A stretch of 50,843 nucleotides of DNA, filler included, from Bipalium vagum (taxonomy: Eukaryota): assembly GCA_037834085.1 (NCBI GenBank). It is 3 parts of 3 records of this genome, joined end to end, with 100 filler letters (N's around TTAATTAATTAA, not from the genome) between each part and the next. Parts side by side here need not be neighbours in the genome. Positions count along the whole stretch, not along the records: positions 1 to 17,192 come from JBBMKC010075164.1; 2 more parts are not named here. One strand, given 5' to 3'. Below the pieces are notes generated by a model, which made no database searches, was not told where the DNA came from, and saw nothing but the letters and a program-made list of their open reading frames with translations. This document shows positions 11,701 to 47,513 of this stretch, one piece after another (within the stretch, counting starts at the first letter, position 1; each line of letters opens with the position of its first letter). A program made the position numbers and the translations under genes.

Positions 11701-14700
11701 TTCTAAAAGAAATGTACAAATTTAATTAAAAGTAATTATCTTTCGTTTTAATAAATCAATCTTTTAATTAATAATTACATTTTATTAAAAATCAATAAAT
11801 TATCTTGTTTTTAAATTGAAATTTATTTTGTATAAATGAAAAAAAATTACGGACTTAAACTTCTTGATGTTGATAATTAATATTGAATATAAGTAAAAAT
11901 TAAAAAGAAAACCAATAATTTAATAAATATAATTTAAATAAACAATTAAAGATGACATACTCGACAACTGAAAGAATGTAGGGCGATCTTTGGGTTGCTC
12001 ATTCCAGCACAATGTTATGATGTTAAAGATCATATTTGGACACAGATCCGGTTGAGTTAGATGGGGTTGTTTTAAATCTTCTGAACGACCAATTGATTCA
12101 TTGTTCACAGATGAGGTATCCTGACAATAACTAAAGATTTTCCATACCAGAACTCCAAATGCCCAAATGTCAGAAGAAAGTGTTGGATGGCAACCATTGA
12201 AAAGTTCTGGAGCAACCCAGTCTTGATTATCGTTAGGATCATTACGGTCCAAACAAGAATGATTACGAAACAGTCCTGCGTCGGCAATTTTGATCTAAAA
12301 TTGTTTATTATTTAACTTTTCAATAAACCCTATGGGTGATTTATATAATGACATGAATAAAATATAATAATTATAAATAGAGTAATCAGATCATGGGATT
12401 TTTTAATTTTCAAATGATATTATTAATTATAATTATAATTTTATTATTATTATTTTTTAAAATGAAAATTTTTGAGTTCACTATTTTTTAAACTTTATCA
12501 TTAATAAATGTCACAACTTATTAATAGATAGTTTACTTACAATTGTTATTAATTATTTACGATTTTTATTTCTATATAACAAATAAAATCGATAAAATAT
12601 ATAAATAAGTTAATAATCCTTGTTCGATAACAAAAATTATTAATAAATTTTATTATTGGAGGTGTTACAGAAATTTTGTTCATGATGATTTGGATTTCCG
12701 ATAATAGACTAATGTCAACTGGCACAAGGTAATAAAATTCCCAAGACAGGAAAGATGAGGGAAAGTCAGGAAACTGAGAATAATATCAAGTCTGTGTCAG
12801 AAAAGATAATTGGCAACGAAACGCTTTTGGACCATATGATTCTCGCCCTCGGTTGTTCAATGACAACGTCTAGGACAAACACCGCCACCAGCACCATTGG
12901 TGAGTAATGGATGATGACCAAAGATGAAAACGATTTGGTAAATTTCAACTTTAATTGCCTGTAATGATAGTGCGCGCTGTGTGAACCAAATGGTATCGCG
13001 TTCAGTGTGCTGTTTGCATTATGAAAAATCACAAAATTACTAATGATGTACAGCTGACAAAACACATTACGATAACAAAAATAGTTGCAGCACTGCGACG
13101 CTGAGAGAGTTCAATGAAAAATGGAACATCACTATTAATCAGCTCTGAAAATATACGGTGCCATGAGTAATGGAAATCGCAGATGAGTGTCAAAGAGCTC
13201 AAAAAGCTGGGAAACTGACACAGAAGACGTGATAGCCATGTGTTAACTAAGTCAAATGGTGTCTTAGTTGGCCTTAGTCATTTCAGATTGATGATATTAA
13301 TAAAAAAGCTGTTCACTTAAACAAATCTCTCAGAAAAATTATTATTACATTTTCTTGAATGGATAAAATAAAGACCTTTACAAGAAAATGAAACCAGATC
13401 AATATAATATTTTTTGCATGATAAATATTAAGATTAATAATATTGATCTGCCTATTGTTTAATAACAGGTGTGTACATTACAAAAGTCTTCTGGTGCTCA
13501 AAATATACTTTATGAATAATACAACGCGATTTTTTTTATTGTTTAAATAATATGAATAAAATGTATAAATAAATGTTGTTATTTATTATTAAAAAATATA
13601 TAATATAAATAAAAAATACTTAACAGATGACACAACTCAATTTTATTAAAAATTGAAAAATATTAAGATAATATATAAATAAAACATACTTTATGAATAA
13701 AAATTAATTTTTTAATAAAAAAGAAGAATTTTTAACAATTTTAATATTTTTAATTAATCAATATGAATAAAAAAAATAATCAGTTCAGGAAAAAGGAAAA
13801 AGATAAAATTAACATATTTAGATAATAAGCGTAATGTGACAGTTTGATAACGATTGTCGTACTGGCGCTGATCAAAAGAGCTGTCTTTTCGAAAAAGAAG
13901 TTTTTGATAAAAACGATAAGTTAACATGGAAACATTATTTTTTGATTACGACAAAGGGAGTCCTTTTGTATTACCTTTTTTCGTTCAGGTAAAATATGGC
14001 AGGAGAATTTCAATTATACATTATCGATCATATATATTGTGATTTTAGTGTTCCTTAGATCTAATACCAAATAGACCATCGTTAATTTTTGAAATTATCT
14101 CAAGTGGCTAAAGAAATCGATGACCCAACAAAAAATCCTATTTCAGAAATATTATTTCAGAAGTTATATTCTTCTTTGACCTTGTAAGCCGCAATAGAGC
14201 TCTTTAGAAAAAGATGAATCTTCTGCTTTCAACATTTATTTATATAATCTGCCAAACTTCTCAAACTAATAAAAATCATTTCCATTATCAGGTGATTAAA
14301 TATAAAGAATTATTTGTTAGTTATTATGTGCCCCAAAGTCCTAATGAGAAATAATTAACCGGGATAAGATATCATGATGACCTAACGAAACATTTGAAAC
14401 TGTTTTAATCTCTTACTACAGAGCCCACAGTCTTCGATTATACTTTCAGTATTTTATCAACAAATGACACTGAACATGTTATTAAAATAATAATTCAGTG
14501 CAGGTAGGAGTAGGAGCTGCGATGTTGACAAATAGCAATTATTGATGAAAAATAATATCATTATTATTTTCTGCAAAACAAATATTGGCAAATAATTTTT
14601 TGTTTAATTATTATTTATTTTGTTTCACGAAAATTAATAAATAATTTATTTCAATTATTTTAAATATTTTTCGTAAATGTTGATTTTTATTATTTTTAAA

Positions 14701-15275
14701 TATTATTATTTTTAAAATTTTATTCATTATATTATAAATTTATATATTATATATTTCTATTATTTAAAAATTTATTATTTTAGAAAAATTTTTAAAAAAA
14801 CCACCGACTGATATATATCTTTTTGTGAACAGCTGAAAATGTAAAGCAGAAATCAATACTGTGGGGTTGTTGTTTTTGCTGTGCGGTTATAAAGACATGA
14901 AAAATCATCAGTCAATGAACCAAGTTTCGACCAATTTTCATTAATAACCTTCTGCCACCCTCCCCCCATGAAAAACAAATACAAAATACAAAATCCGTCA
15001 CTATACGCTAAGTCTACGGTTTGTCAGATAAATATGTTATATTTCTCTCTGAAATCTCAAATGAATCTGAACCACGACATCTTAGAAGGTTGTTATAGCT
15101 AATTTGAAGGCAATTTTTTGATCTTATCAAAATTGACCAAGTTAAAATTCGATACCATTTCGTCTTAATTTTCAATGACTGTCTGACAAGATAAATATAT
15201 TTATTTTTATTGTTTATTAATTATATATTCATTATCATTATTTATTATTATTCTTATTATTATTATTATTATTAC

Positions 15276-15308
<33 letters not shown>

Positions 15309-16478
15309 AAGAATAATCAAAAATTAAAAACCTGAAAAATATATTATTTGATATAATAATAAAATAATTGAAAATTTTCAATCAATATAAAGCAAAAATA
15401 ATTTATAAAAAATAATTTAATATTACAGATGAATTATTTGTTAAAAAATATATTTAACAATGTTAATATTAATATTAATAATAACAATAATTTAAAAAAA
15501 TAAAATTTTAATTAAATAATTTAATTTTCCTTAAAGGTATTGTATTATTTTGCATATTTTATTAATCTCATGGTGTTAATAATAATGTGAAATGTCTCCA
15601 GAAAGGGAAAATGAAAAGAGAAACTCTAAAAATCATAAAGAGGACAAAAGCTTTAAATAATAAAATGAAATAAAAAGGCTCAAGTCTTGTTACTCATTTT
15701 ATAATAATTCAGAGAAATAGTCCAGATTTAAAAGAGAATTTTCGGCAGTCCACTTCAGTGTGACCGACAAAAAATCAATATATTGAATATCAATATCTCA
15801 ACAATTCAGAACGTTATCCTCTCCGTATACTTTTATTAATAAATAAATTGGAATCCTTCCCACACTGTTAAATATATATATAAGAAGAGACAATTTTAGA
15901 TTTTGAAAGGTCTAACGGACAATTATTGATTTATCAATAAATTCAATTTATCAATAAATAAAAAATTTTGGATTTTAATATCTGGGTAATTTCCGAAACA
16001 AACAACCCTTTAATCAATTATTGTCTTGCTGTAAATACACCATAACCATTTCTGGAAGCTCGACACTTTAGTGAGAATGTAGTGTTTTACTTTAAAAAAA
16101 CATTTGATAACGGAGACTCTCCTATGATATGGTTTATTTCCCTTTTTATTACCATCCTCGTGTCGGTGGTAATCCTTGTCAAATATAAAATATAAGCAAG
16201 CCAAGGTTGAGACTACACCATCGACCAATCTTCAAATCTTTTGAACAACCCGGACGTCATCACAACTCGAATGAAGTATCGATCATTATCATCATCAAAT
16301 TGATTGTCTCCATCACCCAAATTGAAATGCGACCTTTTTCTCACAGACTTCATAACATCATTAAACTTTGTCAATGTTAAGTGAACCAATAAAATGTGGA
16401 AGTAATTATGATTCGTCTATTCATTGTTCAACATGAGTTACGAAACAAAATCAGGACTCAGACCACGAACTCTAACAT
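673..16478 (-). CDS. Ack-like: Ack-like/PR2-type non-receptor tyrosine (pseudo)kinase, whole-gene span. Model: join(16464-16478,16219-16416,16091-16174,13066-13214,12775-13009,11961-12294,8480-8657,8179-8420,5971-6215,5729-5914,4908-5595,2809-3041,1275-1393,673-865), ~1032 aa
   Basis: Domain order kinase C-lobe, then SH3, then CRIB is diagnostic of the Ack family. All 13 proposed introns are GT..AG with matching phases and no internal stop. The first five exons and the last exon are tentative. Confidence 0.75.
1275..1393 (-). CDS. Ack-like: Ack-like probable C-terminal exon
   Basis: GC-rich island with cttaccttag acceptor and AG|GTAATA donor; open frame GGAAFRAIKKGDGVFRATAVVNRRRPSAGERLS. Confidence 0.6.
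2809..3041 (-). CDS. Ack-like: Ack-like exon: Asn/Ser-rich tail
   Basis: tttcag acceptor in phase 1 matches the previous donor; open frame (ORF 2800-3006); CAG|GT donor. Confidence 0.65.
3960..4085 (+). mobile_element. Possible mariner transposase C-terminal scrap in an Ack-like intron
   Basis: SLRGRNFTDKENI / VKQFFKNKSE*FYR resembles the mariner C-terminus. Confidence 0.4.
4908..5595 (-). CDS. Ack-like: Ack-like exon: Ser/Thr-rich C-terminal region
   Basis: ttcccag acceptor; 688-nt open, GC-elevated frame (contains ORF 4894-5487); G|GTAAAT donor. Confidence 0.8.
5729..5914 (-). CDS. Ack-like: Ack-like exon: Pro/Ser-rich region
   Basis: Follows a 56-nt intron; AGDDTPPYATID...PPPLPP...LPEE|GTAAGC, phase 0 on both sides. 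Confidence 0.8.
5971..6215 (-). CDS. Ack-like: Ack-like exon: CRIB (Cdc42/Rac-binding) motif
   Basis: ISIDMISAPQNDFRHVGHISNNGDVFGD matches the CRIB consensus IS.P..F.H..H; ggtttag acceptor, GGG|GTAAAA donor. Confidence 0.9.
6839..7117. other. Sized assembly gap (279 N) inside an Ack-like intron
   Basis: Run of N. Confidence 0.99.
8179..8420 (-). CDS. Ack-like: Ack-like exon: second half of SH3 and linker
   Basis: Follows a 59-nt intron; DFWRGCFLNGESGYF is the SH3 W.G....G.F motif. Confidence 0.85.
8480..8657 (-). CDS. Ack-like: Ack-like exon: kinase end and first half of SH3
   Basis: tttcag acceptor, phase 1; NFIRLVPEQLIAMTD...MLCYKKGDLIIVLDR; AG|GT donor. Confidence 0.85.
11961..12294 (-). 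CDS. Ack-like: Ack-like exon: tyrosine-kinase C-lobe (subdomains VII-XI)
   Basis: ttttag acceptor, then IKIADAGLFR...WVAPE...SDIWAFGVLVWKIFSY...CP..IFNIITLCWNEQPKDRPTF; A|GTATGT donor, phase 1. Confidence 0.92.
12775..13214 (-). CDS. Tentative Ack-like exons 13066-13214 and 12775-13009: degenerate alphaC to catalytic-loop region
   Basis: Open GC-elevated frames collinear with ACK1: PSFLSSLTLICDF ~ PDVLSQPEAMDDF; DVPFFIEL ~ DHRNLIRL; AIPFGS ~ LAPLGS; RIIWSKSVSLPIIFSDTDL ~ RFIHRDLAARNLLLATRDL. Donor sites are weak. Confidence 0.5.
15240..15307. repeat. (TTA)n microsatellite, imperfect
   Basis: Direct inspection. Confidence 0.9.
16091..16478 (-). CDS. Tentative Ack-like 5' exons (16464-16478, 16219-16416, 16091-16174): SAM-like remnant, degenerate G-loop, beta3 Lys
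   Basis: Phase-0 introns of 47 and 44 nt; MLEFV/TNHNYFHILLVHLTLTKF resembles the Ack SAM start; RVSVIKCF ~ ACK1 TVSVAVKCL. Confidence 0.45.
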
Positions 16479-17192
16479 TTTAAATTCTTCAACCTGTCTA
16501 GGCGTTCAGTTTTTCACAGTTTTTTTTTCTTATGAAAGTTGTAATTGTGGTTTTCATGGTCATTTGACTTCATTATTTCTTCTGCTTTTGAAATTTTTGA
16601 AAGACAAAGGACAAAAATATTTATTTTCAACTAATGTTAACCACGTGCACATTTTAAAGGAAAGATTTGGTGAGATTTTTTAAAAAAAGAATGATTTCAA
16701 GATGATGTGAAACTGTTTAGAAATGGATTTGGTCAAGATTCCAAGTAAATTAACAGTCGTTTTCAGTCGACGTCTGTTTTTAGCTAATTTAATGAAGGTC
16801 GTTTGATTCTCAAAGTCAATCGCTACAAAATTTGTTAAGTGGACGCACAGGCGCATTTTAATTATATTATATTATATTTCATTTTAATTATAAATATAAA
16901 TTTAAGCTTAATGAAGACGTTTAACATCAACGTTCATGAGAAAACATTTTCATCATAATTTATGTTTGACTTTTTAAGAATTCTCACACTTATCAATTGG
17001 AAAAGACTAAATTTGCTTTTATTCAACTATTAAATGGAAGGAACGACTAATGATTACTAATTATTAATAATAATATTACTAATAATAACTATTATTATTT
17101 ATTATCATTTATTATTATTTTTTAAAAATTATTATTATTATTATTATTATTATTTATTATATTATTATTATTTATTATATTATTATTATAAT

Positions 17193-17659: not shown

Positions 17660-17753
17660 AGATGTGATTCAAAATCATCTTTTACAAATTATGTCCCTTA
17701 TTGCAATGGAGAAACCAATTACGACTAATGCCAACGACATTCGTATCGAAAAA
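17660..17753 (+). CDS. G6PD: G6PD exon (contains catalytic His, human H263 equivalent)
   Basis: tgtag|A GAT GTG ATT CAA AAT CAT... RIEK|GTAAT. Confidence 0.95.
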
Positions 17754-20700
17754 GTAATAACGATGTTTTTAGTAATAAAAAAGTATCAAATATAAATAAT
17801 TTATATATCTATATCATTAATAATAAATAAAAAAAGACGAAAAAATATTATAAAATCAATTAAGTCTCTAAAATATTTTTATAATTTTTGCGTACTTTAT
17901 CAATCTCTTCTATCCTTTTTGATCATCAAATGCTGTGATGTTTTCCTTTATCGTTTGAGATGTAAGTAACCATCCACTTAAACATTTACCCAATGTCGTT
18001 TCACTAAAATATATTTTGAGAATCGTCTGAAAATTGTTATTAAGAGTTTTATCCGTGTTCTTAGCCAAGAGAATAATGAAGCTTCACAGTATTGAATATA
18101 TGTCAATCAATCTTCACCGGATTTCTAATATTCAATTTTCATTAAATCTTATTAAGAAAAGACTTTAAAGAATTTTTTTTCTTTCTAAAAATCAATTGTA
18201 AATCTAAAAAAGATTTTCAATTCTTTCTCAAAATTATTATTAAAATAATTGTTGATAATAAATATGTTACTTAAATCATTTCTCTAACAAATATTTTGAA
18301 AAAAATATATAATTTTTGATTTATTGATTATCCCATTTAAAAATATCTTTTTGAAAGTTTTAATTTCATTGAAAAAAGAAATTTAATAAATGAAATGAAA
18401 TAAAATTTTTCAAGTACACGCTTTTTATCAATTGACAATAAAATGTATGTTCGACGTTCGAAACATATATCATAATAATACATGTTTAAAAAAATTGTGT
18501 TGTTCATTGATAAAAAGAGTGTATTTGAAAAATAAATTGATTAAGTTCACAATTTAAAAATATTTTAATATTTAAAATGATTACACAATTAAACCAAAGT
18601 TAAAATCCATGTTTAGATGTCAATATTAATTATTCTAAAAATCTTGAGCGTTTAGAAGTCAAAATTACGACAAAAAATTATTATATTTTAAATAGACATA
18701 ACTAAACCAAATATGCAATGTTTTGTTCGATAACCTGCCATTCTTCTGACATCATAATGCCATTCCCGTAAAGATTTTCTGGTTTCTGCTCAAAAAATTG
18801 GGTCAATTATTTTTTGCACGTATCTTTTGAATGAAATTTCACATTATGAAGGGAATTCTGCATAGACCTTAACAAATGATAATTCGAAGGTGTGAGGTCT
18901 GGACTATATGGTGGATGCATCAAAACTTCATCCTAACTCGATTTTTACTGGGTAGTAAAAGATTTATGTAGTCTGGCGTTTTTTTTATCTTCACGATGTC
19001 TTTCTGTTCGAAAGTTCCGATTGTTTTATTTTAAGGGATTGTTGACAGTAAAGAACTGAGTCAATCAATTTGCCACCAGGAAAAACTCAATACATAATAC
19101 CCTTGAAATCACATTAGACAAATAATAATAACTTTATTGAAGTCAACTCGGGCTTTGGCGCCTTTTTCTACAATGCATTCTACAAATCGATTCTGTGAAA
19201 TGTGATGTGCCATTTGAATTATTGCCTACAATTTATATTGCAACTTATCCCTTTCTTCATAAAATTATAATTTTCACAATTAAAATAGAAATATTTTTAA
19301 ATATTGAAGGAAAACTTTCATGTTGCATAAAAATATTTTTTAAAATTGTTTATTGTTGGGAAAATTGTTGCATTGCGTTCATTGAGAAATAATTAAATTC
19401 TTTGGTATAAATTCTGCTTTAATTTCTCAGCTATCCTTAAATGTAGATGAAAAGTCTAAAAATATCAATAAGTTTTTGGTTTTATCTATAGAGAAAATAA
19501 TGTAGCATTAACAAGGGGAATAAGGGAAATTTTTTAAAAAATGTTATCCGTATTTTGTTAGGAAAAAATTATAAAAAATTACAAGTTAATATGAAAAAAA
19601 CTCGTTAAAACGGAGAAATAAATGGACTGGAGCTAACAAAGTAATTCACATAATAAAATGTCAAACTTTATGCATCAAGCGACCTACTAAAAATTGTCAA
19701 TATTTATCTCGGCCTCTTCCTTTACAGAGGAGTCAGTCTTAGAATATTTTATTTTCCCCAACATTTACAACGTTAATATATTGTTGTCATGAGATGGAAG
19801 AGAGGTTTTATTGCTTTTTTAACGACGATCCATAATAAACGTAACCATCTCATCATATTATTTTAATGAATCTGATTTTTTATTCCACTACAAAAAATGA
19901 GATTCATTATTTATTGTCGCATTTTATTCAACAGAGATTTTAAATATCGTTTAAAACGTTTAAATGAAATATTTTTGACGGTTTACATCGGTGAGAAAAA
20001 CAAATTAAATATTTGGACCTTTTTATTAATATGTATAATGTCATTCTTTTATGTTTTACTGAAATGATTCGGGGTTTTGAATTATCGCAAAAATCATAGC
20101 ACTGAACAATCCACAATTGAAGGGATTAAATATATTTTGTGCTCCTTTTTATGTCTGTTCAGTTTATTCGTAAAATATTATTTTGAGTATAAGTTGAAGT
20201 AGGACTGTTAATGTACTTCTTTCTTCACATAAAAGAGTCAAAAGGAAACTAATTCAACTCTGGTGCTATCAACTGTGACGTTATTAAGAACGACTTTCAG
20301 TATTTTTTCGACAATTATTAAAATAAACAATTTTTCATTTTAGATTTAACTTGAACGGAAAAGAATTATAGATTAATTGTCTTTTTCACTTAATTTTTCA
20401 GATATAAACAATCTAGACTTATTTTTCTTAGAAAAATATACTTTTTCTTAGACTTTAGCATAAAACTCTAGCACCCTGACTTCAAGTCTAATCGGATTAA
20501 AATAATAGTATGGTTTGGAAGGTGCAGTCTGTCTTTCAGTTCTTGTTTTCCTTCTGAATCAACCAGAAAATGTCTTCTATCCTTAAAAGTAAAACCCAAG
20601 TCTTAAAATAGAAAAAGAATATTGACATTCTCATATACTAATCATTAAAAGTGTCAGTGAAATATAAATTATTATGTAGTTATAATTATTAATGTATCTC

Positions 20701-23700
20701 TGAAGTTAAATTCAATAAGTTCAAGATCCTTACCCATTTAGGAATCATTGATCTTTTAATTGATATTTGTCAAAACCCAATCGATTTTCAATTGAACCAA
20801 AGAAAATCTAAAAAACGATAGGTGATAAATCGAAGTTAAATGTAACAAAATTTGCAAAACAGATTTTATTTTCCCTTATCAAAATCTTAATTAATTTTCC
20901 AAAGTTGCGGAACATTTGTTTTAAATGATGAATGCCATGGTGTTTAATAAATTTTGGCATTGCTCAAAAATGCTCAACTGTTGAATATGTAAATATTTTT
21001 CTACATTTATAGTTGAAAGCTTTGCGAGCCGTTACAGCATTATCCCTAGATAATTTAGTTGTTGGACAATATGTGGGAAATAAAGACTCTTCTGATCCAA
21101 AACACAAATTGTCTTTCAAAGAAGTAAAAGGCATTCCTGAAGGTATAGATAGTGATTTGATTTGGTTTTATTTTATGATTATTATGAACGCCAAGATTTT
21201 AAAGACAACAACGATAAAATACAATAATAGACTTTAACATCGGGATTTATTTGATTTTTAAAATTTATCGTCTTTGAACTGCCTTTTTCTGTGCAACTAA
21301 ACGTTTTTGATTTAATGATCATTTATTTTCACTCGGTACTTAGCAGACAGATAAACAACTGAAATATCATCTGTCACCAGAAGTGCCATTTTTTCCTTGT
21401 GATCATACTTTTGATAACTTAATCAATATTATAGAATTTTTTACGTGATTCAATCCATTTTTTAAAATTTTTAATCATTTTTCAAACTGAATTAATCTTT
21501 TGGTAAAAATTATAAAATTAGTCTCTTATATTTCGAAGTACAATGATAATAATTGTCTCTATCTTTGTAAAATCTTTCGATAAATCGAAAACAAGTAGGA
21601 ATCAGGATGTCATGGAAGTGTATAATTTCTTAACAGAATCTTACAGTATCAGATTTCAGAAAGAAGAATTTACATACATGGTATAGAAAACTTTGGACCT
21701 ATCCAAATCTAACTCATACTGTTGAGGTTGCAGAAACATTGCAATCTATTTCTTTATTATTGGAAGTTTTAATTTGATCTCTTCATCATTTCATTGTAAG
21801 AAATGAAATTGTTCTCTGTCCTCCATGTTAATTAAGTGATCATATGACAAGAAATAAAATAATACTAGTTTTCATTATTCTCTCAGACTGACAACTATCT
21901 GTATGTACCTTTCAATCTTGAACAAAGGTTTTCACTAAGTTAATACATTCGACAACTTTTAACTTCATCAGTCATTATTTATAGTGACTGTAAATAATCT
22001 TATCTGGAAGTCACTCTCGGTTTTTTCTTTAATAATGTCTTTTCTTTGCTTTTTCATGAATTATCTTAGAATGTATTTACAAATTTTCTGTGATTGGCCG
22101 CCCAACAATGTCTTATTGAAGTAATACATTTATATTTTGTTATATATCTCAAAATAAAGAGTAACGTCGAAATTTATCTTAAGAATTATTTTCATTATTA
22201 ATTTTTAAAAACAAGTTTGATTTTATTATTAAATTTAACGGTGTCAACTTTCAACTGATGCGACTTGAACCGTTTTCTTCGAAATATGAAAAACTGTCAT
22301 AGGTGAAAATGGTGAAAAAATGTATTGTTTTGGAGATGGAATTTCTGAGTGCCACTGATGAATAAAGTGCCCAGAAATATTAATCTATTTTTATTTCATA
22401 TTTTTAATTATTCTTAGAAAATAAACCAATAATAATTATTTGATTGATATTAATAAATTAATCAATAATTATTAATTATTAAATTAATTTTTTATTGTAA
22501 TTCTTTTGCTTCATGTGTGAATTTTTGAAATGTTCATCTTAACTTTTCTAAAGATCAATTATTCAATTTTCATATATAAATCTGATTAATGGGATTAGAA
22601 AATGGGTTTCATGTTGTTGGTGTCTCAAGGTAATTCTTTTAATTTTTTAAAATTCAGATTCCATTACTCCTACTTATGCCTGTGCCGTTTTATTTGTGAA
22701 TAATGAGCGATGGGACGGCGTACCTTTTATTCTTAGGTGTGGCAAAGGTTAGATTTTTAAAGGTCAGGTTTTGTTATCATGTTTATATATATTCGTACTC
22801 ACCATAGCTCTCAATGAAAGAAAGGCTGAGATTCGAATTCAATTTAAAGATGTTCCAGGAGACATATTTTGTCGAGGACAATTGAAGCGAAATGAATTGG
22901 TAATTCGCGTGCAGCCGGGTGAAGCAATATATATAAAGATGATGACGAAAAAGCCAGGTGTTCCAAATGAAGATGGAGCAGGAGACTCGCAAGCCTTTGT
23001 CAATGTCGAAGAGACGGAATTGGAATTAACTTATAAGGAAAGATATAAAGTACTATTTATGTGTTTTTCGAAAGCCAGATATTTTTAAAATTGTACACAT
23101 TGTCATTCTTTAATTGTAATTCATTATTTTCATTTATAGTTATCAATTTCAAATTATTATTATTATTATTATTATTATTAACAATAAATGCAGATACCGA
23201 AACTGGGCAACAAATTTGATTATCACTTGATAAGGTCAATGTCTGAACAATATTTTGATTTCAGATTCACTAAATGTTCACTTATTCGTTCAGTTGCACA
23301 ATGATAATAATAATACATGAACCAAATTTCAAGTATAAGTGTGTATTATGGCGTTTCATCTGAAAATTATGCTGATCACTTATTTTATTATCATTTGAGT
23401 TTTTTTGATGAAATTTATTAATTAATTTAATTTTTACACACAAAAAGCCATTCAAAAATTCTTACGTGTTCAAATTTATTTTTATAAAAAATACTTTAGA
23501 TTTAAATTTTAAGTTTAGTCATAGACCAAGATATAAAAGAGTACAAAAAGGTAATGAGCGTTTATCTGAAACAAAACAGATTTCAAAAGAAGAAACTTGT
23601 CAAAATGAAAATTGTTACAGATATCTTGTCCATAAATTATTACTTTTTTACTATTGACAGAATGACATCTTTTATGTTGTATGATAAATGCTGGTAATGC

Positions 23701-24135
23701 AACCTGGATTTGGATCCCGCCTAACAGTGAAACAGAAAACATTCTGAAAAGCTATTGGCAACATTACTTTATTTTCGTTTTTGAGATTGATTATTAATTT
23801 TCTGTATAATAGTAATTGATAATAAACGGTGTTGAGAAGTTAATCAAACTTAACTGATATTTAAATAAAAATGATTTAAAGGATCCCAAAATCCAATACC
23901 TCATTTTCCGTACCATAATATCAGTCATAAACCCAGCCACACATGAACTTGGTGCGAAAATTAGTTCGTATTGTTGATTTATATCGCCTGGTTTTTATTT
24001 ATTTTATCAGGTAAAGACTTGATTAGATAGTCCATTGAGTTTGTGTTACACAAATACTGCGGCATTTTTGTCAATAACAATTTCAATAAAAATTTTTGGA
24101 ATATCAATAGATTCTTTAGTCTCTTGAACAAATTG

Positions 24136-24207
<72 letters not shown>

Positions 24208-27200
24208 ATAATTATTTCTAATTTATAATATTTCTAGGCTTAGAAGACTTAAATTTGACCAGTCCAACGTAATTTAACATAATACCAGAAGACTTAGTTA
24301 CCTTGTTTGATTATCCAAGAACAGTCTGTCTTCATAAATTTTTTCTCGTCTGCTTGAAATATTTTTATTTGATAGTTTATTTAATTAAAAAACCAATTTG
24401 TAAGATTAATGATGAAATCCAATTGATTTTGCACTTTATTATAAAATGGATGCAAATGAATATAATAATTGCAATTTATTCTGCCCCGCGAGAGCAGCTT
24501 CCTTATTTTTTACTGCATTGGTTTCTGGTATGCATCTGCTTCATTAATAAACAGCTTCCTCTGAACGCTAGGAAAGTATTATTAAATTATTGAATACTTA
24601 CATTGATGCTTTCTATATATTGCACGGGGTTGCAGAAAAATTGATCATTCTGTTCAATTCCATTTTAGCAGCGAAGCCAAAAAAGATTTTTGGAAACAAT
24701 CTTTTTTCAGACGTTCTTTTTTTAATGGATTTTAGGAAAATTATTTTTTAAAACAAAAAATATAGTGAATTTTATTATAGAATGTTATGTATTTTTGATA
24801 GGACTGTGAAGAAGATTTCCAAATATTTAAACATTTTCACTTTGAGCTCTATGTAAAATACTCCAAATATCGATTAGAAAACTTTTCCCAGCTACGAATA
24901 ATTGCTTCAGCTGTGATACGGGTTTGTAATAAACGACCACAAATATTAACATAAAACATTTCATTTTATTTCCAATTAATACGAAAAAGTTTTTTTTTCA
25001 AAGCTCTATAATTTTGTCAACTTTGGTAAGTAATTGTCACATTCTCAACATTTTGTTAGGTGGTATCCCACTAAAATCTGTGAAGAATCCGTTGAAATTT
25101 TTTGCATTGATACACATACTTTTTCAAACTCCATTTATAAACGATGATCATTGATCAATTAGATAAGGCAGTGTTATAAGATCATGTAACTGTTCATTAA
25201 TTAGGAAATCAGAGTGCCTGATGCTTATGAGAACTTGATTCTTGATGTTTTTAATGGTCTGCAAATGGACTTTGTTCATGTAAATGAGCTACAGGAGGCG
25301 TGGAGAATCGTGGACAAAGCTTTACGACAACTTGTTGAGAATAATATCAAACCGTTCGAATACGTTTGTGGAAGGTGGTGGTTCATTGATTTCTTTAATC
25401 CTTTATAATAATGATAATTTATTTTTATTAATTATTATTTCTATTAATTATTTTTTATTTAATAATCATAACTTCATTTTTATTCCATTATTATAAGTGG
25501 GTGAGAATCATCACCAGGTGAAATCAGTGAAGATTAATAATAAAAAATACTTTAATAATAATATAAACAACTTTCTAAGAAGAAATTTAGCTATTAAATC
25601 GGATTATTTTAAAATATTTTCGCTGGGAAACATAATCAGGCAGCATTTTGTCTAATTCCATAAATAGATTTTACTAGTGCTTTTGTATATTCGAGGACCA
25701 TATAATATATGCGTACGTGTATTATGTAACGGACATAATTATGAAAGGGAGAGGCGGGTTCGGTCTTATTTTACTTTTCCTGTGGAAGCGTAGAAATGAA
25801 AATTATCAAATTAGAAATTAAATGTAAACATATCACTTTACTTCGAATAGTTTTATACTATTCTATTATTTTTAAAAATAATCTTTTTAATACTAATAAC
25901 ATTCCTATGATCTTTATTTTAGAATATCCAGTCCTTGAACTGTTAAATTGTTTTAAAAGAATTCATTTTAAAATGTCTGTTAAAAAATGTCTGCAATTAA
26001 AAGAATCAATTCTTTTTTAAAGTTAACTTGTCATATTAGAAAATAAAAAACAATATTCGTTCTCAAAATTAATATCATCATTATGACTACTGGTATCGTT
26101 TATAATGATGAAATTGGAATCGGTGGCTCTCCAAATTAAGGTTTTCAGATATTACAAAAAAGTGCTCATTTACAAAAACTGTAATATGAATTTAACAAAA
26201 TTAAAAAATTTCATTTATCTGCAAAATCAAATTGACTCCCAAAACTCAGTTTTCTGCCTGATTTCTGCTTTTACGATATTTTTACAAGTTAAAAGTAAAT
26301 AGTTTTATGTCACAAAAACTTATTCGTACGTATATATGTTGCTAAGATGACTTCTAAATTGGATTGTATAACTTTTGTCTGAAAAGCGTAGAAGAATCGT
26401 ATGTCAGAAGATGCCAAATTTTATGATAGTGGAAAACTCTATTTCAACTGGATGAGTTTTGGTAAGCAATTTATGAGGAAAATTTATTTTCTGAATAAAA
26501 TCAATTATTAATTTAATCTCACTAAAATACGGGACTGCGACTCGACCATTTTACATTAAAAGCTCAGGAATAACAAAAGCAAAAGACAGGTGTTGAGAAT
26601 TGATATTTGAAATACGATATTTGGTAATTGAGAAAATTGTCAAAGAATTATTATTTCGATTCTAATGTTGTTTGGAACTTCTTACTTTATACTACCAGAT
26701 CATTATTAGATGTCTTGTTAAAATTATTTAATAATTAGCTAATTTGTGTCAAAGGTTCCAAACCAAAGTTCAATTCATAGAAAATCATCTTTTCTTTTTT
26801 CTTTGATGATGAAATACAATTTTCGGTTGTTTATGACCACACTTTCAGTGGATTTTAAAGATTTCTTTATATTTATACTTAATTTTGATAGAAAATCAGT
26901 AGTCTTTATTTTACACAGGGTTTTCAACAATTTTGAAAATTTCATTAAGATCTGTACTTACACGTCATTGATATTGACACGTTTCACTTAATATAAAGGT
27001 GTCTGTTTTAAATCTTTGGGAAATCGGACTATTATTTCGTAGACGGACTTGGTCAATTTTGATTTCATCTCGTTTTATGGACAGCCTTTAAACTTAACTC
27101 ATGTTAAAATTCTTCATGAACTTATCAACGTTGTTCCTTTTCCTTTTTTAAAGTTAACTGTGACAGTCAATTTATTAATAGTACTTGCTAATCTTGCAGA

Positions 27201-28008
27201 TTTTGTAGTAAAATGTGATAATTTCAAGAGAAATAAATGCAGGTATTTTAAGAAACATTTATTTTTAGGCTGACATTTCTCCCATCATTCAGATAATTAT
27301 TGATTAGATGATTATTAGTTGTAGATCCATTTTCTCATCTTACGCATTTTCATTAGCTTGCCATCGATGGTATTAATGTAGGGAAATCTGAAGAAGCAAC
27401 TTTTGGTTAATTTGGCGAGTCAGTGAATATTTCCCCGAATTATTCTCATTGTATGACCACTGACCCTTGGTTTAGTCTGATCATTTGTTGTAGTAGCTTT
27501 TGTAATAGTCGATAATGTCAGTCACATTAAACACTGAGCAATTTTTACTTATCAAAGTCATTTGAAGTGTTTTGATGTTTGATCTGCATAAACCCGTGAT
27601 TTTGGTCGTTTGAGATATTTATGCTTCAGTCTGTTACCATTTAATTTTTGTACATTGACCAAACTTTTGACTGAAATATTGACTTATGTTAAATAAAACT
27701 ACGCAAATATCAGTCGGTGGTATTTGGTACGACTGACCTCGGTCGACACAAATGGAAAAACTTATGAAGAAGACGAATTTCTGATAAAGAAATTTTGCTG
27801 AACACATCAAATAAAATTCTCATTTTAGTTTGAATATGACTGGTGGAGGTGGCGTTTTACAAAAATGAAAATTGGTTTAAAGTGAAAAATATTTTTAATT
27901 GGTTTTAGCCGTAACGGTCCGAAAGAGGCTGACGAGCTGATGCGAAGAGTCGGGGTGGTATACTCAGGCACATATGTATATAACAGGCATCAGGATGGTA
28001 AATTGTAA
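17660..28008 (+). CDS. G6PD: Glucose-6-phosphate 1-dehydrogenase, 5'-partial. join(17660-17753,21013-21142,22658-22747,22808-23049,25205-25374,27909-28008)
   Basis: [89 protein letters not shown]; all splice phases match; stop TAA at 28006-28008. Confidence 0.97.
18406..18532. repeat. Inverted repeat / fold-back element (MITE-like)
   Basis: 35-bp arms at 18406-18440 and 18498-18532 with 5 mismatches, plus an inner hairpin at about 18443-18470. Confidence 0.8.
18705..19190 (-). mobile_element. Degraded mariner (DD34D) transposase C-terminal relic in a G6PD intron
   Basis: [27 protein letters not shown] matches the mariner [16 protein letters not shown] motif; stops and frameshifts present. 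Confidence 0.85.
21013..21142 (+). CDS. G6PD: G6PD exon
   Basis: [23 protein letters not shown]...; ag acceptor, G|GTATAG donor. Confidence 0.93.
22658..22747 (+). CDS. G6PD: G6PD exon
   Basis: [30 protein letters not shown]. Confidence 0.96.
22808..23049 (+). CDS. G6PD: G6PD exon
   Basis: Follows a 60-nt intron; [21 protein letters not shown]...[11 protein letters not shown]. Confidence 0.96.
24139..24206. repeat. (TAT)n microsatellite in a G6PD intron
   Basis: Source of the spurious poly-Tyr ORF. Confidence 0.97.
25205..25374 (+). CDS. G6PD: G6PD exon
   Basis: [18 protein letters not shown]...ELQEAWRI...YVCG. Confidence 0.95.
27909..28008 (+). CDS. G6PD: G6PD last coding exon
   Basis: ttttag|C then [32 protein letters not shown]; compare human [21 protein letters not shown]. 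Confidence 0.93.
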
Positions 28009-31039: not shown

Positions 31040-31970
31040 CCGTAGATACTCGAATATAAGTCGAGGGGAAAAAATGGGAAATTCTATGAAAAACCGAATG
31101 ACTCTTATATAAGTCGAGGTAAAAATATATGTCTGGGTAGTTTCATATTTCGTACATTTGGAAAATAACATAAAATAACAAGGAAAAAATGTCAATCTTT
31201 TGATACTTTATTGCAAAATAATATTGATAATATTTATATATTTATTACATTTATATATTTGTAACATTTATTCAAAACTACAAAATTTGGAATCCGAGTC
31301 TGATTGAAGAAATTGCAATGCCTGCTCATTAGTCCTATGGTCTGAATAGAAGTCGTCATCATCCGATTCGTCATAATCTTCGGCAGCGGTGGTGTCATCT
31401 ACCCAGAGTATGTCGTCTTCAGTTCCGTCCATCTTGTTTGATATCCCGGTCTTCTTGAAGCTATTTGAGATGAGGGGGGCGTCTATCTTTTCCCAGGCTG
31501 TTTTGGTCCACCCAGTGACTGTCAAGAGGTCTGGTCGTTTCAGGTTTCCAGCTTTGGTGGTCTGCTCTTGTCCACTGGACATCCACGATGTCCATTGGTC
31601 TCGCACATGACACTTGAATGGTCGGTTGATGCTGACATCAAGTGGCTGGAGTATGGAAGTGAGTCAACCTGGAATGACTGCAAAATCTGTTTTGTATTGG
31701 TTTTGTGTTCGGTGCTTGACGCGGTCTACTAGGTGTCCGCGAAAGCTGTCCCAAATGAGGAGACTTCTGTTTTGGTTGGAGGGGCGATTAGCCCAGACTT
31801 TCTGGAGCCAGATCAACATTACATCTGTGTCCATCCAGCCTTTTTCATTGACGTGCACAACAACATCAGAAGGGTACCGTTTTTCTCTTGAATATTAACA
31901 TTGGTTTTAATTTTTTGGCCATTGGCTGTACAACATAACACAACAGTAAAATGAGTTTTATCATTTAGCC
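31040..31970 (-). mobile_element. pogo/Tigger-type (DDE_1) DNA transposon, 5'-truncated
   Basis: THFTVVLCCTANG, NEKGWMD, LLIWDSFRGH, VIPG/LTSILQPLDVSINRPFK, with frameshifts. Pogo-type terminus TA|CCGTAGATACTCGAATATAAGTCGAG at 31038 and a subterminal TATAAGTCGAGG repeat near 31108. Confidence 0.92.
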
Positions 31971-32092
31971 ACTCTTTACTTAATCATAACATTGCTGAAA
32001 CTCGGAAAATTACTCGCAAATACCATTCTGTCACAGAAAAAATACGACCGGCAGTAAATTCCGATAAAATAATTACGAGAAATATTAAATTT

Positions 32093-33570
32093 TTGTTAAA
32101 TAATAAGAACATCAAGAATTTTTTCGAAACCCAGTTGGGTGAAAAGTATATCTTCCTCGATTGCACTGTATCAGCAGCAATTCTTGGTGGATGTACGGAT
32201 TATCTCTCCGATCATCTTGATCTCAATATGGTAAACAATATTTCTGTAATATTTCTCATCTTTCAGCACCCAAACTCTCAACAACGTCTTCTAGTTTTAG
32301 ATTTTGAAAAAAGGTTTTCTTTTGTTATCAATCCGACATTTTCCCACAACTCCGAAATTGCATATTCCATCGAGTATATTGAAAGAATTCTTTTTTTAAA
32401 TTCGAGGAAATGTTGATTGCTTTGACTTGAATGAGTGCCCTCCACACGAAACACGTGGTTCAGGTCTCTACTCAAATTTGATCTTTTGTGGAATAATTGA
32501 GAACTATTCAAGTAGTGTAGATCTTACTGGTTTTAACTTCCATCTAATGTGTCTTGAAATCCCTAAATTTGCTCTTTCTCCACCTTCCATCAATGAGAAA
32601 AGGCTCAGCAAAAAAGATAGACAAAGTAGGGCTAAGGCACTTTTAATAGAAATGGTCGAAAATGATTATGACGTTGACCGTATCATGGATAAAATTGTCA
32701 GTCTCTTCCTTTCTCGACCTTCTGTTTCACGTCATAAACCATATCTTGGGTCAAAAAGAAATTGAATAAATTTGCTGTAAGATCTAATTTTAATAAAAAT
32801 ATGAAATACACAGTAAATAAGATTATCAATGACGATATTATTGATTCCCGACCATCAATAATAGACATTATTGGACACTACTCACCCTTTACCTGAAAAC
32901 AAAACTTGAGTTTTTAACGAATTTTGTAAGTCTTCCTCGACCGAACTACACCTTGATTTGATTTTACCTGCTGAGGTGTGTATTGCACTGAAAAAAGTAG
33001 ATAACGCAACTCCTAATTGCGATGGAATCACATACAGCAACTTGAAATATTTGGATCCTGACGGAGACATCTTATGCTTCTTGTTTAATAAAATTATTGA
33101 ATCCGGAAAAATTTCATCTCTTTGGACTTTGTTTAAAACATCTTAAATTCCGAAACCTAGCAAAAGTGATAATTATCACCCGGTGTCAAGCTGGAGATCA
33201 ATTGCTCTTCTCTGTACTTCCTACAAGATTTTCGCTGCGATTCCCTGTAGCAGATTAAACATCTGGGTCAGGAAGAACAATCTTCTTCGTTTTTGTCAAA
33301 AAGGTGGTACTGAGTATGAGCGATGTGTCGAGCATAATGCGGTTCTTACTGCAGCTTTGGAACACTCTAAATATTCAAAAAATTGCCCAATTTCTATTGC
33401 TTGGCTCGACATCAAAGACGCCTTTGAGTGTTCCACACAAATATCTATGGTCACTTCTTCGATTTATAGGGGTCGGCAAAAGCTTCGTAAAAATATTGGA
33501 ATTGTGTTACAATAATATCAGTACATTTTACAGCTGTGGGCCTTTGACAACACCTAATCTGCCAAACTAA
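32093..33570 (+). mobile_element. Non-LTR retrotransposon fragment, R2/NeSL (RLE-type) reverse transcriptase, 3'-truncated
   Basis: TPNCDGITY...LFN...W...IPK...SSWRSIALLCTSYKIF...QKG...CVEHN...IAWLDIKDAF/SVPH; has a stop and a frameshift and ends before the YADD motif. Confidence 0.9.
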
Positions 33571-35034: not shown

Positions 35035-35134
35035 NNNNNNNNNNNNNNNNNNNNNNNNNNNNNNNNNNNNNNNNNNNNTTAATTAATTAANNNNNNNNNN
35101 NNNNNNNNNNNNNNNNNNNNNNNNNNNNNNNNNN
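35035..35134. other. Artificial assembly spacer N44-TTAATTAATTAA-N44
   Basis: Identical structure to 17193-17292. Confidence 0.97.
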
Positions 35135-36075: not shown

Positions 36076-36396
36076 TCACCTTTTAATTGAATTTTGTTTT
36101 AAAAAGTAACTGGTGCCTAATCTTAGTCCAACCAATCGTCGTCGTTTGTCGTATGTAATCCATTTCTCATCACATAGTACAACATCGTTTAGAAATCGGT
36201 TGCTTCTGATACCATTAATCAGTTCGAATGGTAATTTATGTTTCCATTTCAATTCGTATGGGACATTTTTATCAAGCTTTTCGGTTTTCCCATTGCTTTT
36301 AAGGTGGTTCAGAACTATCGGATGCGTTACTCCAAATCCATTAGCAATCCATATGGAAATTAATTGATATTTAGATTCGTGAAGGTTATACATCAA
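36076..36396 (-). mobile_element. Degraded mariner transposase (HTH, WVPHEL linker, first catalytic D)
   Basis: VLNHLKSNGKTEKLDKNVPYEL ~ WVPHEL; FLNDVVLCDEKWITYD ~ TCDEKWILYDN. Confidence 0.85.
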
Positions 36397-36948
36397 AAAA
36401 GAGCTATACTTCGTAAAACAATAACTTTATTAAATCATATTGATTCATAGAAAAATTTATTAAAAATAAATCATTATAATAAAAATCTTTGGCTCACAAC
36501 TGCTTCCAGGTGAACCGATAACAAAAATAAAAAACAATATAAATAAAATTCCTGGTTAGAAACTATATCGTTCAATTTCGGGTTATGAATCACTAATCAA
36601 TAATTAATATAATTCAATACTGAAGGTTGGATCAGCAACTCCACCACTTTAGGGTTAAATAACTGAAAATTTTATTTGTTTTCTCTTTTCAATTCTTCTT
36701 TTTTGTGTTCTCCACATCAAGTAAGACGAAGAACCAAATTTCTGTCTCAGAGCCTTTGAGTGTAGATACCAAAGAGTGCTCTATCCTTTTCTTTCCATTT
36801 TCTTTTTCGACTTCTGTCTAGTATAAAATATTAAACAAATTGTAACATTTTAATAATATTTGTAAATTCATTAAAAAATAGATTTTATTTTAAAAAAGCG
36901 TGTTACATTGTTCATTTTGATTTACTATGTTAGTCCCTTTAATAAATA

Positions 36949-38042
36949 CAGGGTGCATCAGCTATTTGAGGACAAAAATTGTTAAAATATATCATGATAA
37001 TTTTTTTAGTGGCGCTAAAATTGATTTGCAATATTTATTGATACAACATTAAATGATTATTTTTTAATTTAAATGGAAGAGATAACTTTTGAATTAACAC
37101 AAGAAATGAAAAGATATGCAGTTATTGTTGCATTAACCACCGGACACAGTGACTTAGAAATTTCTTAATGTGGTCAGATCGTTTGTCAATAAAATTAGAA
37201 AGGAATATTTGGCATCTGATCGAAATGTTTCCTCTATATCTAAAAGAAAAACACATTTCTCACGTTCAGACATTGTCAGAAATATTAATTTTGTTCAAAA
37301 AGTCCAGGATTTTGTTCATGAAAGTTCCGAAACATCAATGAGAAAAACTGCCCATTGACTATCGGTTTCTGAGTCAACAGTAAGACTAACGGTACACAAT
37401 GATTTAAAATGCAAGTCCTGTGTCATCAGAAGAAGACATTTTGTATCGGCAAAAAGCAAAAAAAATAGTTTAATCCGCTCGAAGTGTCTTTTAAACAAAA
37501 TCAAGCATCATCCAAACATGCTATGGTTCTTTTCTGATGAAAAACTTTTTACTCAAGATCAAAAAGTTAATAGGAGGAACGATCGATGGCTGTGCTCCAG
37601 CAACTTTAACGATATGGGTGTTGTGAGAAACGAAGGTCATTCTATGCCTCCGTATTTCTTTCGACAGAGACTTAGAATTAATGCATCTCTTTATATCAAG
37701 TGTCTGGATACATAATTAAAGCCATGGATTGAAAAAGTTGCCCACGGAAGGCCTTATTTGTACCAAAAAGACTCAGCTCCCTGCCATATAGCATTAAAAC
37801 ACAAAAATGGTTATCGCTAAATTTTAACGACTATGTCACTCCACACCTATGGCCACCTACCTCAATCGATTTAAATCGTAAAGCTGTAATTGACACTGAA
37901 GACGATTTCATTGAATAAATAAAACTTGTGTCCTTAAAACAAATAAAGTTTCTAATATTGCTTAAAAATATACATTCTTTTCATTAAAAATATTACTTAC
38001 ATTTAATATCAATTTTTGTCCTCAAATAGCTGATGCACCCTG
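36949..38042 (+). mobile_element. Tc1/mariner superfamily element of maT/DD37D type; both ends intact, transposase defective
   Basis: Perfect 33-bp TIR CAGGGTGCATCAGCTATTTGAGGACAAAAATTG with TA on both sides; WFFSDEKLFTQDQKVNRRNDRWL, GRPYLYQKDSAPCH, LWPPTS; stops and deletions. Confidence 0.95.
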
Positions 38043-39443: not shown

Positions 39444-39971
39444 ATGGAGGATATTTCATACTATAAGACGTTGTTAGATGAAATAATAAAAGCTCTATCG
39501 ATAAACCCCGATAATGCCGAACTCATAGAACAGAAGGAGAACATAGAGGAACTTCTGCTGTTAGCCAAAGAGATCGAAGAGCCAATTTGGAAAATCGGTG
39601 ACGGTTGTCAGGCGCTGTGGGAAGAGGACAACAATTATTACAACGCCGTCATCATTGACACGTTCATTGACGGCACGTGCAAGGTTCAGTTTGATCGACA
39701 CAATAACAAAGCTATCTGTGATCTTAAATCTCTTAGACCGAAGATGGATGAGGAGAAGCTGGGCAACAAGATCCGCCAGCGAAAGCGCCAGAAGAACAAG
39801 GAGGCCTACATGGAGGGCCGCTCCAAGATCAAACAAGCCAAAATGGAGCTCTTGCACGAGGTCGACGCTATGTGCGAGGCCGAGCGCAGGAACTGGAAAA
39901 AGTTCAAGGCTAAGCTCAAGAAAAAAGAACGTAAACTGGCCCCCATGAAAAAGGAGATCAAACAAACTTAG
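39444..39971 (+). CDS. SMNDC1: Survival-motor-neuron-related splicing factor 30 (SPF30) Tudor protein, 175 aa
   Basis: N-terminal YK..L..I..AL...P.N.EL coiled coil; Tudor WKIGDGCQALWEEDNNYYNAVI; basic helix ending ...ERRNWKKF; AATAAA at 40100. Confidence 0.88.
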   Translation: MEDISYYKTLLDEIIKALSINPDNAELIEQKENIEELLLLAKEIEEPIWKIGDGCQALWEEDNNYYNAVIIDTFIDGTCKVQFDRHNNKAICDLKSLRPKMDEEKLGNKIRQRKRQKNKEAYMEGRSKIKQAKMELLHEVDAMCEAERRNWKKFKAKLKKKERKLAPMKKEIKQT

Positions 39972-40650: not shown

Positions 40651-42092
40651 CCGTGTTCCCCTAGACATTTCCTGCTTAAAAAAAACTTATTGATTTTGTG
40701 TGATAAGGCATGTCCTGATTACTGTGTTTTGAAATTCAGCTAATTTACTATTAAGAGGAATGACTGATTATTCGATTTATAATCCATAATAGAAATACAA
40801 AATGGCTCAAAAACGAAAGAGCTACTCGCAAGATTATAAAGAAAGCATAGTGGAAGAATCCAGAAATGCTTCAAACCGACGGGTTTTCTGCGAAACGAAA
40901 TTAATACTTATGTGTATGGTTCAAAAAGGGCGAGAGGAACATTTTGATATCTGTCAACAGACAAATGAGGGCAATGGGAAAAGTGCAAGTTCGGATGCTG
41001 ACGAAAGCCATTTTTTTCAGAGCTCGAAGATACGATTTTTGATTGGGTTGCTGAGAGAGGAGCAGCATCTTTGGTTATTCGAAGAAATGATATTCAAAAC
41101 TATGTACTACGAGTGGCCTCACAATTTTATTTATGCCTTGGATGATTTTAAGGCATCCAAGCATTTGTTAGATAATTTTCTAAAACGTTATCAGTTAACT
41201 CTGCGAAGACCGATAACGCTATCTAAACTTGAAGATCTTGAATTGATTAAGCGTGCGCAATTGTATTTAAGACGTTTGTTGATGATATCGATTTTTCAAA
41301 ATATAAACTTTCCAATATGATTGCTGTGGACGAGGCTGCTGTTTATGTGGGCCAAAAAAATGAAACTACAATCGAGTAACACTTCAGTTTACGTTCCCTC
41401 TACAAGTCACGAAAGTGAAGGCGTTACTTGCATTTTAGAGATTCGTTTGAATGGAACAAAGGTCTCACCAATTATCATCACTAGGGGTTGATTGAATGTT
41501 ACCAACTCTTCTGAAAGACAAGAAAAAGGCACGTTAGCCTGGGATTCCTGTAGCAATCATCGCGCATAAAATACAAAGAAAATTTTTTCAGAGAGATGAA
41601 TCGATCAAATAATGATTCCTGGAGGAATGACTGTCTACCTTCAAACTATTGATCTTACAATACATAAAACCTTTAAAGACCGCCTTCCAAGCGAAATAAA
41701 TAAATACATCGAAAACGGAACGTGGAAACTTCGAGAAGCCAGGTCCAAAAAGAAGTCATCAGATTGGCGAAAAATTCGTTGGAACAGTGTCAGTGAGAGT
41801 TGCGTTCGCAGTGCACTGCGAGCACGGTACTTGGATAAAACATTCGCATTTGAGTATACTTTTATAAGACTTGTACCACAGGTTGTGAAGGAATTGGTAT
41901 TGCAAGACTTCACAAATGCACTTGAGGCTATTGGCGCTTACGATTGTACTCCTGAGGAAGATGAATTGATTCTTTTTGGAAAAACATTTTTGAATGCTTT
42001 TTTACTTTTATTTATTTTTTTTTATTTATTATTTTTATACGGCATTGAACAACGTTTAGGTGAAGACATGTCCTATAATAGCGGAAACACGG
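40651..42092 (+). mobile_element. pogo-family DNA transposon; both ends present, transposase disrupted
   Basis: Imperfect TIRs TA|CCGTGTTCCC and GGAAACACGG|TA; KRKSYS HTH, FKASKHLLDNFLKRY CENP-B-like HTH, IAVDE, WDSCSNH, IPGGMT.YLQTID. Confidence 0.92.
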
Positions 42093-42380
42093 TAATAAGA
42101 CTGAACAAATACAAGGAGTCATGTAGATAAGAAAGAAAACCTTTCGCCATAAAAAAACACAAGCCAAGGAGGCGTAAGCAGAATAAAACAGAATTTGGCC
42201 AAATATTTGCTGCATGCTGACAATGATTCCCACGAGGAAGTAATTTAAAAATGCAATTCGATTTTTTATCAATTGATCAATTTAAACAATATTCGATCAA
42301 TATATTGGGTTAGCCATGGGTACATCCTTTTTAAACCTCTTGGAAATTATTATTTGAAGACCGCAAAATGGTGAGAATTT

Positions 42381-47200: not shown

Positions 47201-47513
47201 TCCTGTGAAAACAGAAAATATAGGATCATTTTGATTATAATTAGATAAAGACTTTTTCTTATATATTAATTAATTTTTAAATAATGAATTGATTAAAATG
47301 TCAATCTCATTATATAAGTTTACTTAGAAGCTTTCCTTCTTTCAAATTATATTAAGAAGTAATATTATTCTTTTATTTAAACTTATTAATTATTTATGCT
47401 GAAAACCAATTTAAAAAATTATAGCAAAATAATATAATAATCTTTTCTTATAAATTATTATTAACAAGTTTGTTTAAATAATACTTTTAATTTTTCGCCA
47501 AGTTCAAACCAGA

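Follow-up and report, generated by a model that had tools for sequence, protein, structure and literature searches.

Ack kinases are regarded as active enzymes, and pseudokinases as such are common. The features of the Ack family, as set out in excerpts of PMC10047419, are a tyrosine kinase domain, an SH3 domain C-terminal to the kinase and an N-terminal SAM domain. In the class comprising ACK1 and PR2 the SH3 domain is followed by a CRIB (Cdc42/Rac-binding motif), and these CRIB-bearing Acks bind GTP-Cdc42 (PMC3355085, in excerpt). Literature searches for a described Ack pseudokinase, in which the coverage of subscription papers was poor, found none, and the word 'pseudokinase' does not occur in the Ack1 review. 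Here we describe a gene on the minus strand of a 50,843 nucleotide (nt) stretch of Bipalium vagum DNA (GCA_037834085.1; hereafter, the window) that, judged by its sequence, represents the 3' portion of an Ack gene, closest to the PR2-type Acks of flatworms. The interpretation favoured, with a probability of roughly 0.56, is that this Ack gene has been truncated by the assembly and encodes a kinase with little or no activity, likely to be a Cdc42-binding adaptor. A previous sequence-only reading had proposed an Ack-like kinase turned into a catalytically dead pseudokinase scaffold; of this proposal the Ack affinity, the CRIB and the probable loss of catalysis stand, whereas its details of the N-lobe were drawn from unsupported exons.

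The first recognisable exon of the gene, 12294-11961, matches positions 141-254 of the 258 in the Pfam PK_Tyr_Ser-Thr profile (E-value 2.4e-23), has human ACK1 structures among its top PDB matches, and provides, from the C-lobe alone, the tyrosine kinase domain of an Ack. A word-index homolog search with this exon gave no matches, and a metagenome scan of 21 loci found none with a CRIB or K-x-x-DA motif, the 11 that were translated being unrelated kinases. DAG stands in place of DFG at 12282-12274, NQDW precedes APE, WE is replaced by WK, and YCQDTS follows alphaF; the activation segment is free of Tyr and spans 26 residues from the D to APE, compared with 31-33 in four intact Acks. In all these respects the exon is as originally described. 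The DFG Asp, APE, the alphaF Asp and a late Arg are kept, and the substrate-side residues lost are the P+1 Pro, the Glu of WE, and the Gly and Pro after alphaF. AlphaFold predicts the C-lobe as a tyrosine-kinase lobe (mean predicted local distance difference test score, pLDDT, of 71), but this model leans on the supplied kinase alignment, making its fold match weak evidence.

The remainder of the gene is consistent with the same family. Eight exons joined by GT-AG introns (Table 1) give 741 codons with no stop or frameshift, and because the last of them finishes at a donor, the gene must continue further. The path from C-lobe through SH3 to CRIB, the positive control of the spliced profile alignment, scored 120 bits; three true junction sets were recovered on it, together with three false micro-exons invented in the 3.3 kb intron. 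The CRIB, placed after the SH3 as in the CRIB-bearing class, matches Pfam PBD just under the cut-off (E-value 0.0011) and is identical to fluke and tapeworm Ack CRIBs at 15-16 of 23 positions. The SH3 sits in the expected place with a few of its motifs, the Pro of the G-x-x-P motif being substituted, and scores 2.6 bits against a profile from three other Acks, versus 43 for the SH3 of Cichlidogyrus; Pfam SH3 has no match on either SH3 exon. Retention of both modules, as first claimed, therefore holds for the CRIB and weakly for the SH3. Two tail motifs rank this gene first among the 2711 open reading frames (ORFs; at least 12 residues) of the window (E-values 0.004 and 0.0067), which a third motif profile did not; these PR2-type tail motifs and CRIB form were defined here from four fluke, tapeworm and monogenean sequences. 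Trees place the gene with the Acks, with weak support.

That the kinase has little or no activity appears probable from its sequence. The DFG Phe is the regulatory-spine residue RS2, whose replacement by Ala (RS2A) abolished the activity of PKA, and Ala is found at RS2 in 0.11% of more than 13,000 kinases (PMC3797032, in excerpt). Among 379 kinase domains with both motifs aligned, Ala occupies the DFG Phe column in none of the 180 with an intact Lys/Asp/Asp triad and in four of the 199 without; the triad-intact domains keep the Glu of WE in 174 cases and the following Pro in 167. The C-lobe is 35-40% identical to those of intact Acks, themselves 50-74% identical to one another, and the CRIB still matches at the 15-16 positions noted above. 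Since one exon of the adjacent G6PD gene agrees with its closest PDB structure at around three quarters of positions (counted by hand), this rapid change looks specific to the kinase gene. By a functional standard, the Ala for DFG Phe breaks the regulatory spine, a change known to inactivate PKA; the visible part falls short of the three-residue definition of a pseudokinase, as the DFG Asp is retained in DAG and the other two residues are unseen. Mechanistically, the spine would be unable to assemble without the DFG Phe, so that the retained Asp would be misplaced for catalysis, and the usual rescue by phosphorylation would be unavailable to a loop with no Tyr. Selection might then maintain the fold of the C-lobe because it offers a surface for docking, with the CRIB tethering the protein to Cdc42-GTP and partners being recruited through the proline-rich tail.

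A search of 1.8 billion representatives returned one particularly informative relative, P0100 (Cichlidogyrus casuarinus Ciccas_010950, KAL3310485.1), from a parasite of fish and annotated just as a hypothetical or non-specific protein-tyrosine kinase. It reads VAIK, has lost the alphaC Glu, and carries HQSLSARN (HQS for HRD) and IKIADAS (DAS for DFG), which on its sequence makes it a pseudokinase in the standard sense. In common with the window gene it has the order kinase-SH3-CRIB, the IKIADA motif, a shortened activation segment, the tail motifs, and the L, G and P after APE, with a C-lobe identity of 41%; six residues are common to these two proteins alone, versus one to three for each other Ack, and the best tree makes them sisters. 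The two differ in that P0100 has a visible N-lobe, a clear SH3 (Pfam 31.6 bits) and a decayed CRIB, the last two being the reverse of the window gene. We tentatively suggest, from these sequences, that flatworms may harbour a dead Ack/PR2 branch marked by the change of DFG to DA-x, either as an old paralog shared with Cichlidogyrus or through a change arising twice, with opposite modules kept (CRIB here, SH3 there). The inactivation of PKA by Phe-to-Ala substitution (PMC3797032) and this DAS/HQS Ack lend the probable loss of catalysis support beyond that originally available. Monogenean Acks are listed as drug targets (PMC11260314, in excerpt); one so listed, Scutogyrus Contig1825, scores low against Ack references and may, from its sequence, be an ortholog of P0100. 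A two-kinase protein, P0060, has one DAG domain without HRD.

The exons for the SAM domain, G-loop, Lys, alphaC and HRD most probably lie on another contig, which is the simplest interpretation. The window, AT-rich animal DNA, consists of three contigs joined through identical artificial spacers, one listed in Table 1 (the 'spacer' of the sequence-only reading) and the other at 35035-35134. Contig 1 (1-17192) has (TAA)n at either end and stops beside the first spacer, 4.9 kb upstream of the C-lobe exon. Because G6PD, across the same joint, also lacks its 5' part, its first match, to position 45 of Pfam G6PD_C, lying some 370 bases inside contig 2, an assembly cut is the likely cause of the missing front. 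The absence of an upstream HRDLAARN, correctly noted before (neither HRD in a kinase context nor an AxRN catalytic loop occurs in the six frames of the window), finds a better explanation in the end of the contig than in decay of the exons where they stand. The SAM profile has no match in the window (best E-value 0.49), the 5' end of the gene probably being off the contig, and Ack N-lobe and SAM profiles found nothing above 8 bits in the 2711 ORFs. As controls, 40-residue fragments from the N-lobe of Cichlidogyrus, which was excluded when the profile was built, scored 15-44 bits, and a simulated N-lobe diverged to the same degree as the C-lobe was detected in 100 of 100 trials. The C-lobe exon opens with a phase-0 acceptor, and both its ends coincide with retained-intron-like insertions in the Anoplocephala Ack model.

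Several observations weigh against this combination of truncation and inactivity. The DFG Asp remains, and neither the beta3 Lys nor the HRD position is visible in the window; a mutant result from one enzyme, PKA, need not carry over to another, and in RS2N, a different spine mutant of PKA, phosphorylation of the loop restored about 75% (PMC3797032). The set of 379 domains is biased toward matches of this C-lobe exon. The window protein sits at the end of a very long branch (1.9-3.1 changes per column), and support for grouping it with P0100 is weak, at 69/89. An intron of over 4.9 kb would exceed all 11 sure introns (56-3303 nt), and a simulated N-lobe diverged like the SH3 was detected in about three of 100 trials and missed in about 97. 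The gene might instead be truncated and encode a divergent yet active kinase, the missing contig carrying an intact Lys and HRD while the space of the Phe is filled by other residues, which we regard as unlikely. Such a kinase would suit the retained DFG Asp, APE, alphaF Asp and late Arg, the tyrosine-kinase form of the modelled C-lobe (mean pLDDT 71), and the intact state of fluke, tapeworm and limpet relatives, no substitution being listed for either S. mansoni Ack in excerpts of PMC3117856. It fits poorly with the effect of Ala at this position, which killed PKA (PMC3797032) and is seen in none of the 180 triad-intact domains, with the joint loss of four more conserved substrate-side features, and with the sole relative having DA being without the HRD Asp.

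The favoured reading of a truncated, catalytically inactive Ack also has to be set beside the possibility that the N-lobe exons lie within 12295-17192, decayed past recognition, making the gene a fully degenerate pseudokinase. Five minus-strand segments (16478-16464, 16416-16219, 16174-16091, 13214-13066 and 13009-12775) had been lined up with the ACK1 N-terminus, and a G-loop, a retained beta3 Lys, an alphaC without its Glu and a catalytic loop WSKSVSLP read in them. All five are indeed stop-free, phase-compatible and bounded by GT-AG, but since four of ten control stretches also yield chains of at least 227 residues (range 156-359), an open, in-phase chain is cheap evidence. The N-part of 227 residues scored -3.1 bits or had no match against tyrosine-kinase and Ack profiles, with 441 of 500 shuffles scoring as high or higher against the Ack profile and 473 of 500 against the tyrosine-kinase profile; the proposed alignment, and the motifs read from it, come from exons that failed every test made, and including the N-part did not raise the profile scores. 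Spliced profile alignment of 12295-17190 gave 14.7 bits, matched or beaten by 30 of 37 control stretches, which overlap one another.

Comparison with the 13 sure exons and 11 sure introns of the window was similarly unfavourable. All 13 sure exons rank first among their six frames, as do candidates 2 and 3, whereas candidate 4 comes second and candidate 5 third. AG|GT or GTA is found at 11 of 11 sure donors and pyrimidines at -3 and -5 of 12 of 13 sure acceptors, a rule drawn up after the sites had been seen; it fits one of five candidate donors and none of four acceptors, against a background of 50 of 214 and 35 of 177, respectively. Two of the candidate introns, at 44 and 47 nt, fall below the length of the shortest sure intron. 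Codon log-odds, negative for two sure exons, were too noisy to apply. A Pfam scan of 58 upstream ORFs (at least 27 residues, GC above 0.26) found no kinase, SAM or transposon family, and PDB and Atlas searches with the ORF at 13110-12769 gave no usable match. Decay in place is nevertheless compatible with exon-like GC-rich islands at 12708-13276 and 16153-16319, with the frame ranks of candidates 2 and 3, with the weak donors normal in this organism and with the near undetectability of the gene's own SH3, and it needs no over-long intron; weighed with the missing profile similarity, the remaining ranks, the splice sites, the short introns and the control chains, it seems improbable. An alternative exon recognised by eye at 12773-12669 (minus strand; 35 open codons, better splice sites, a phase-0 end and an Asp-keeping catalytic-loop look-alike) scored -15.8 bits.

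Some further observations concern these sequences. The sure introns fall into two size classes, 56-133 nt and 1415-3303 nt, and sure donors can be weak past the GT (GTT, GTC and GTG are seen), in those cases always preceded by exonic AG. The island at 12708-13276 (40% GC), within the inferred intron, matches nothing in Pfam or Rfam and no repeat of the window; it is purine-rich on the plus strand, where its frames score best and a strong donor lies near 12900. An interpretation of 12660-13290, made by eye, as a transposon or zinc-finger sequence on the plus strand found no support. Alignment of one DNA run to 12560-13540 yielded short pieces at the edges and left 12659-13318 uncovered, which carries no information about repeats.

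It is also improbable that the SAM domain and N-lobe were lost naturally, a short first exon leaving a half-kinase CRIB adaptor. The 4.9 kb without an N-lobe, longer than any sure intron, would be explained, and the rapid change of C-lobe and SH3 is consistent with released constraint; however, a phase-0 acceptor lies where an intron-like insertion occurs in the model of a tapeworm Ack, the neighbouring G6PD is cut by assembly at the same joint, and a C-lobe lacking alphaE is expected to fold badly. A young pseudogene drifting neutrally is very improbable: changes at many conserved positions of the kinase and the SH3 would fit it, yet 741 codons lack a stop or frameshift, every splice site is kept, and structural residues, the CRIB and two tail motifs are conserved despite around 60% divergence.

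Table 1. Features of the Ack-family gene and the adjoining contig joint in the window
Feature	Position	Strand	Basis or remark
Artificial contig joint	17193..17292		N44, 12-base stop spacer, N44; both flanks end in (TAA)n
Inferred intron reaching contig end	12295..17192	-	Contains five unsupported candidate exons
Kinase C-lobe exon, beta8 to alphaI	11961..12294	-	First recognisable exon; Pfam PK_Tyr_Ser-Thr E 2.4e-23
Kinase end and first half of degenerate SH3	8480..8657	-	In frame; alignable to flatworm Acks
Second half of degenerate SH3 and linker	8179..8420	-	59-nt intron and donor found by spliced profile alignment
CRIB (Cdc42/Rac-binding motif) exon, intact	5971..6215	-	Pfam PBD E 0.0011; acceptor found by spliced profile alignment
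Proline-rich exon	5729..5914	-	Open frame, GT-AG phase; best among six frames
Serine-rich exon with conserved IS-x-P tail motif	4908..5595	-	Top match of flatworm motif profile, E 0.004
Low-complexity exon (inferred)	2809..3041	-	Splice phase and open frame only
Exon with second conserved tail motif	1275..1393	-	Top match of flatworm tail profile, E 0.0067

The G6PD gene occupies 17660-28008 (plus strand), with six exons seen, the 5' part missing at the contig start, and one exon bearing an 11-residue insert relative to its PDB match. A 230-base interspersed repeat is present in two copies, 69% identical, at 14862-15091 and 764-986. Broken mobile elements in 31268-33570, 36076-37715 and 40793-42130 comprise DDE_1 transposase, RVT_1 (weak) and Tc5-type helix-turn-helix pieces, and two further mariner-like frames were recognised by eye only. 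Plus-strand genes encode an SMN-Tudor protein at 39444-39971, which we take to be SPF30-like, and an XPG-domain protein at 47478-49654, presumably asteroid-like. An Rfam search of 1-35000 gave zero matches.

Relative to its better-conserved relatives, the window gene has much the same CRIB, the two tail motifs, and the same exon boundaries on either side of the C-lobe as the neodermatan PR2-type Acks (Paragonimus P0152 and P0178, Hymenolepis P0153, Anoplocephala P0154) and Lottia P0111; unlike it, these all keep VAVK or VAIK, HRDLAARN, DFG, the loop Tyr and P-x-A-W. Two Fasciola Acks are intact as far as seen, HRD being visible and the sequences ending before or just after DFG. Vertebrate ACK1/TNK2 (Tiliqua P0155; 38% identity) likewise has a kinase followed by SH3 and CRIB, but is an active kinase with SAM, Mig6-like and UBA domains, none of which were seen in the window. 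A dead Ack keeping its Cdc42-binding motif would, if real, separate scaffold from catalytic roles within the family, and a dead DA-x branch with opposite modules kept would amount to a natural experiment on what Acks do independently of kinase activity; some parasite 'Ack targets' may, in that event, be without an active site. Tyrosine pseudokinases with an altered DFG include JAK JH2, PTK7, RYK and EphB6, and in these, as here, the kinase fold is predicted to act as a scaffold. What defines them is a loss of catalytic residues that has been tested or is visible, whereas at this locus the losses shown are those of the spine Phe and the substrate side. Judged from half a kinase domain, the gene is probably a new example, from the Ack family, of this known kind of pseudokinase rather than a new principle.

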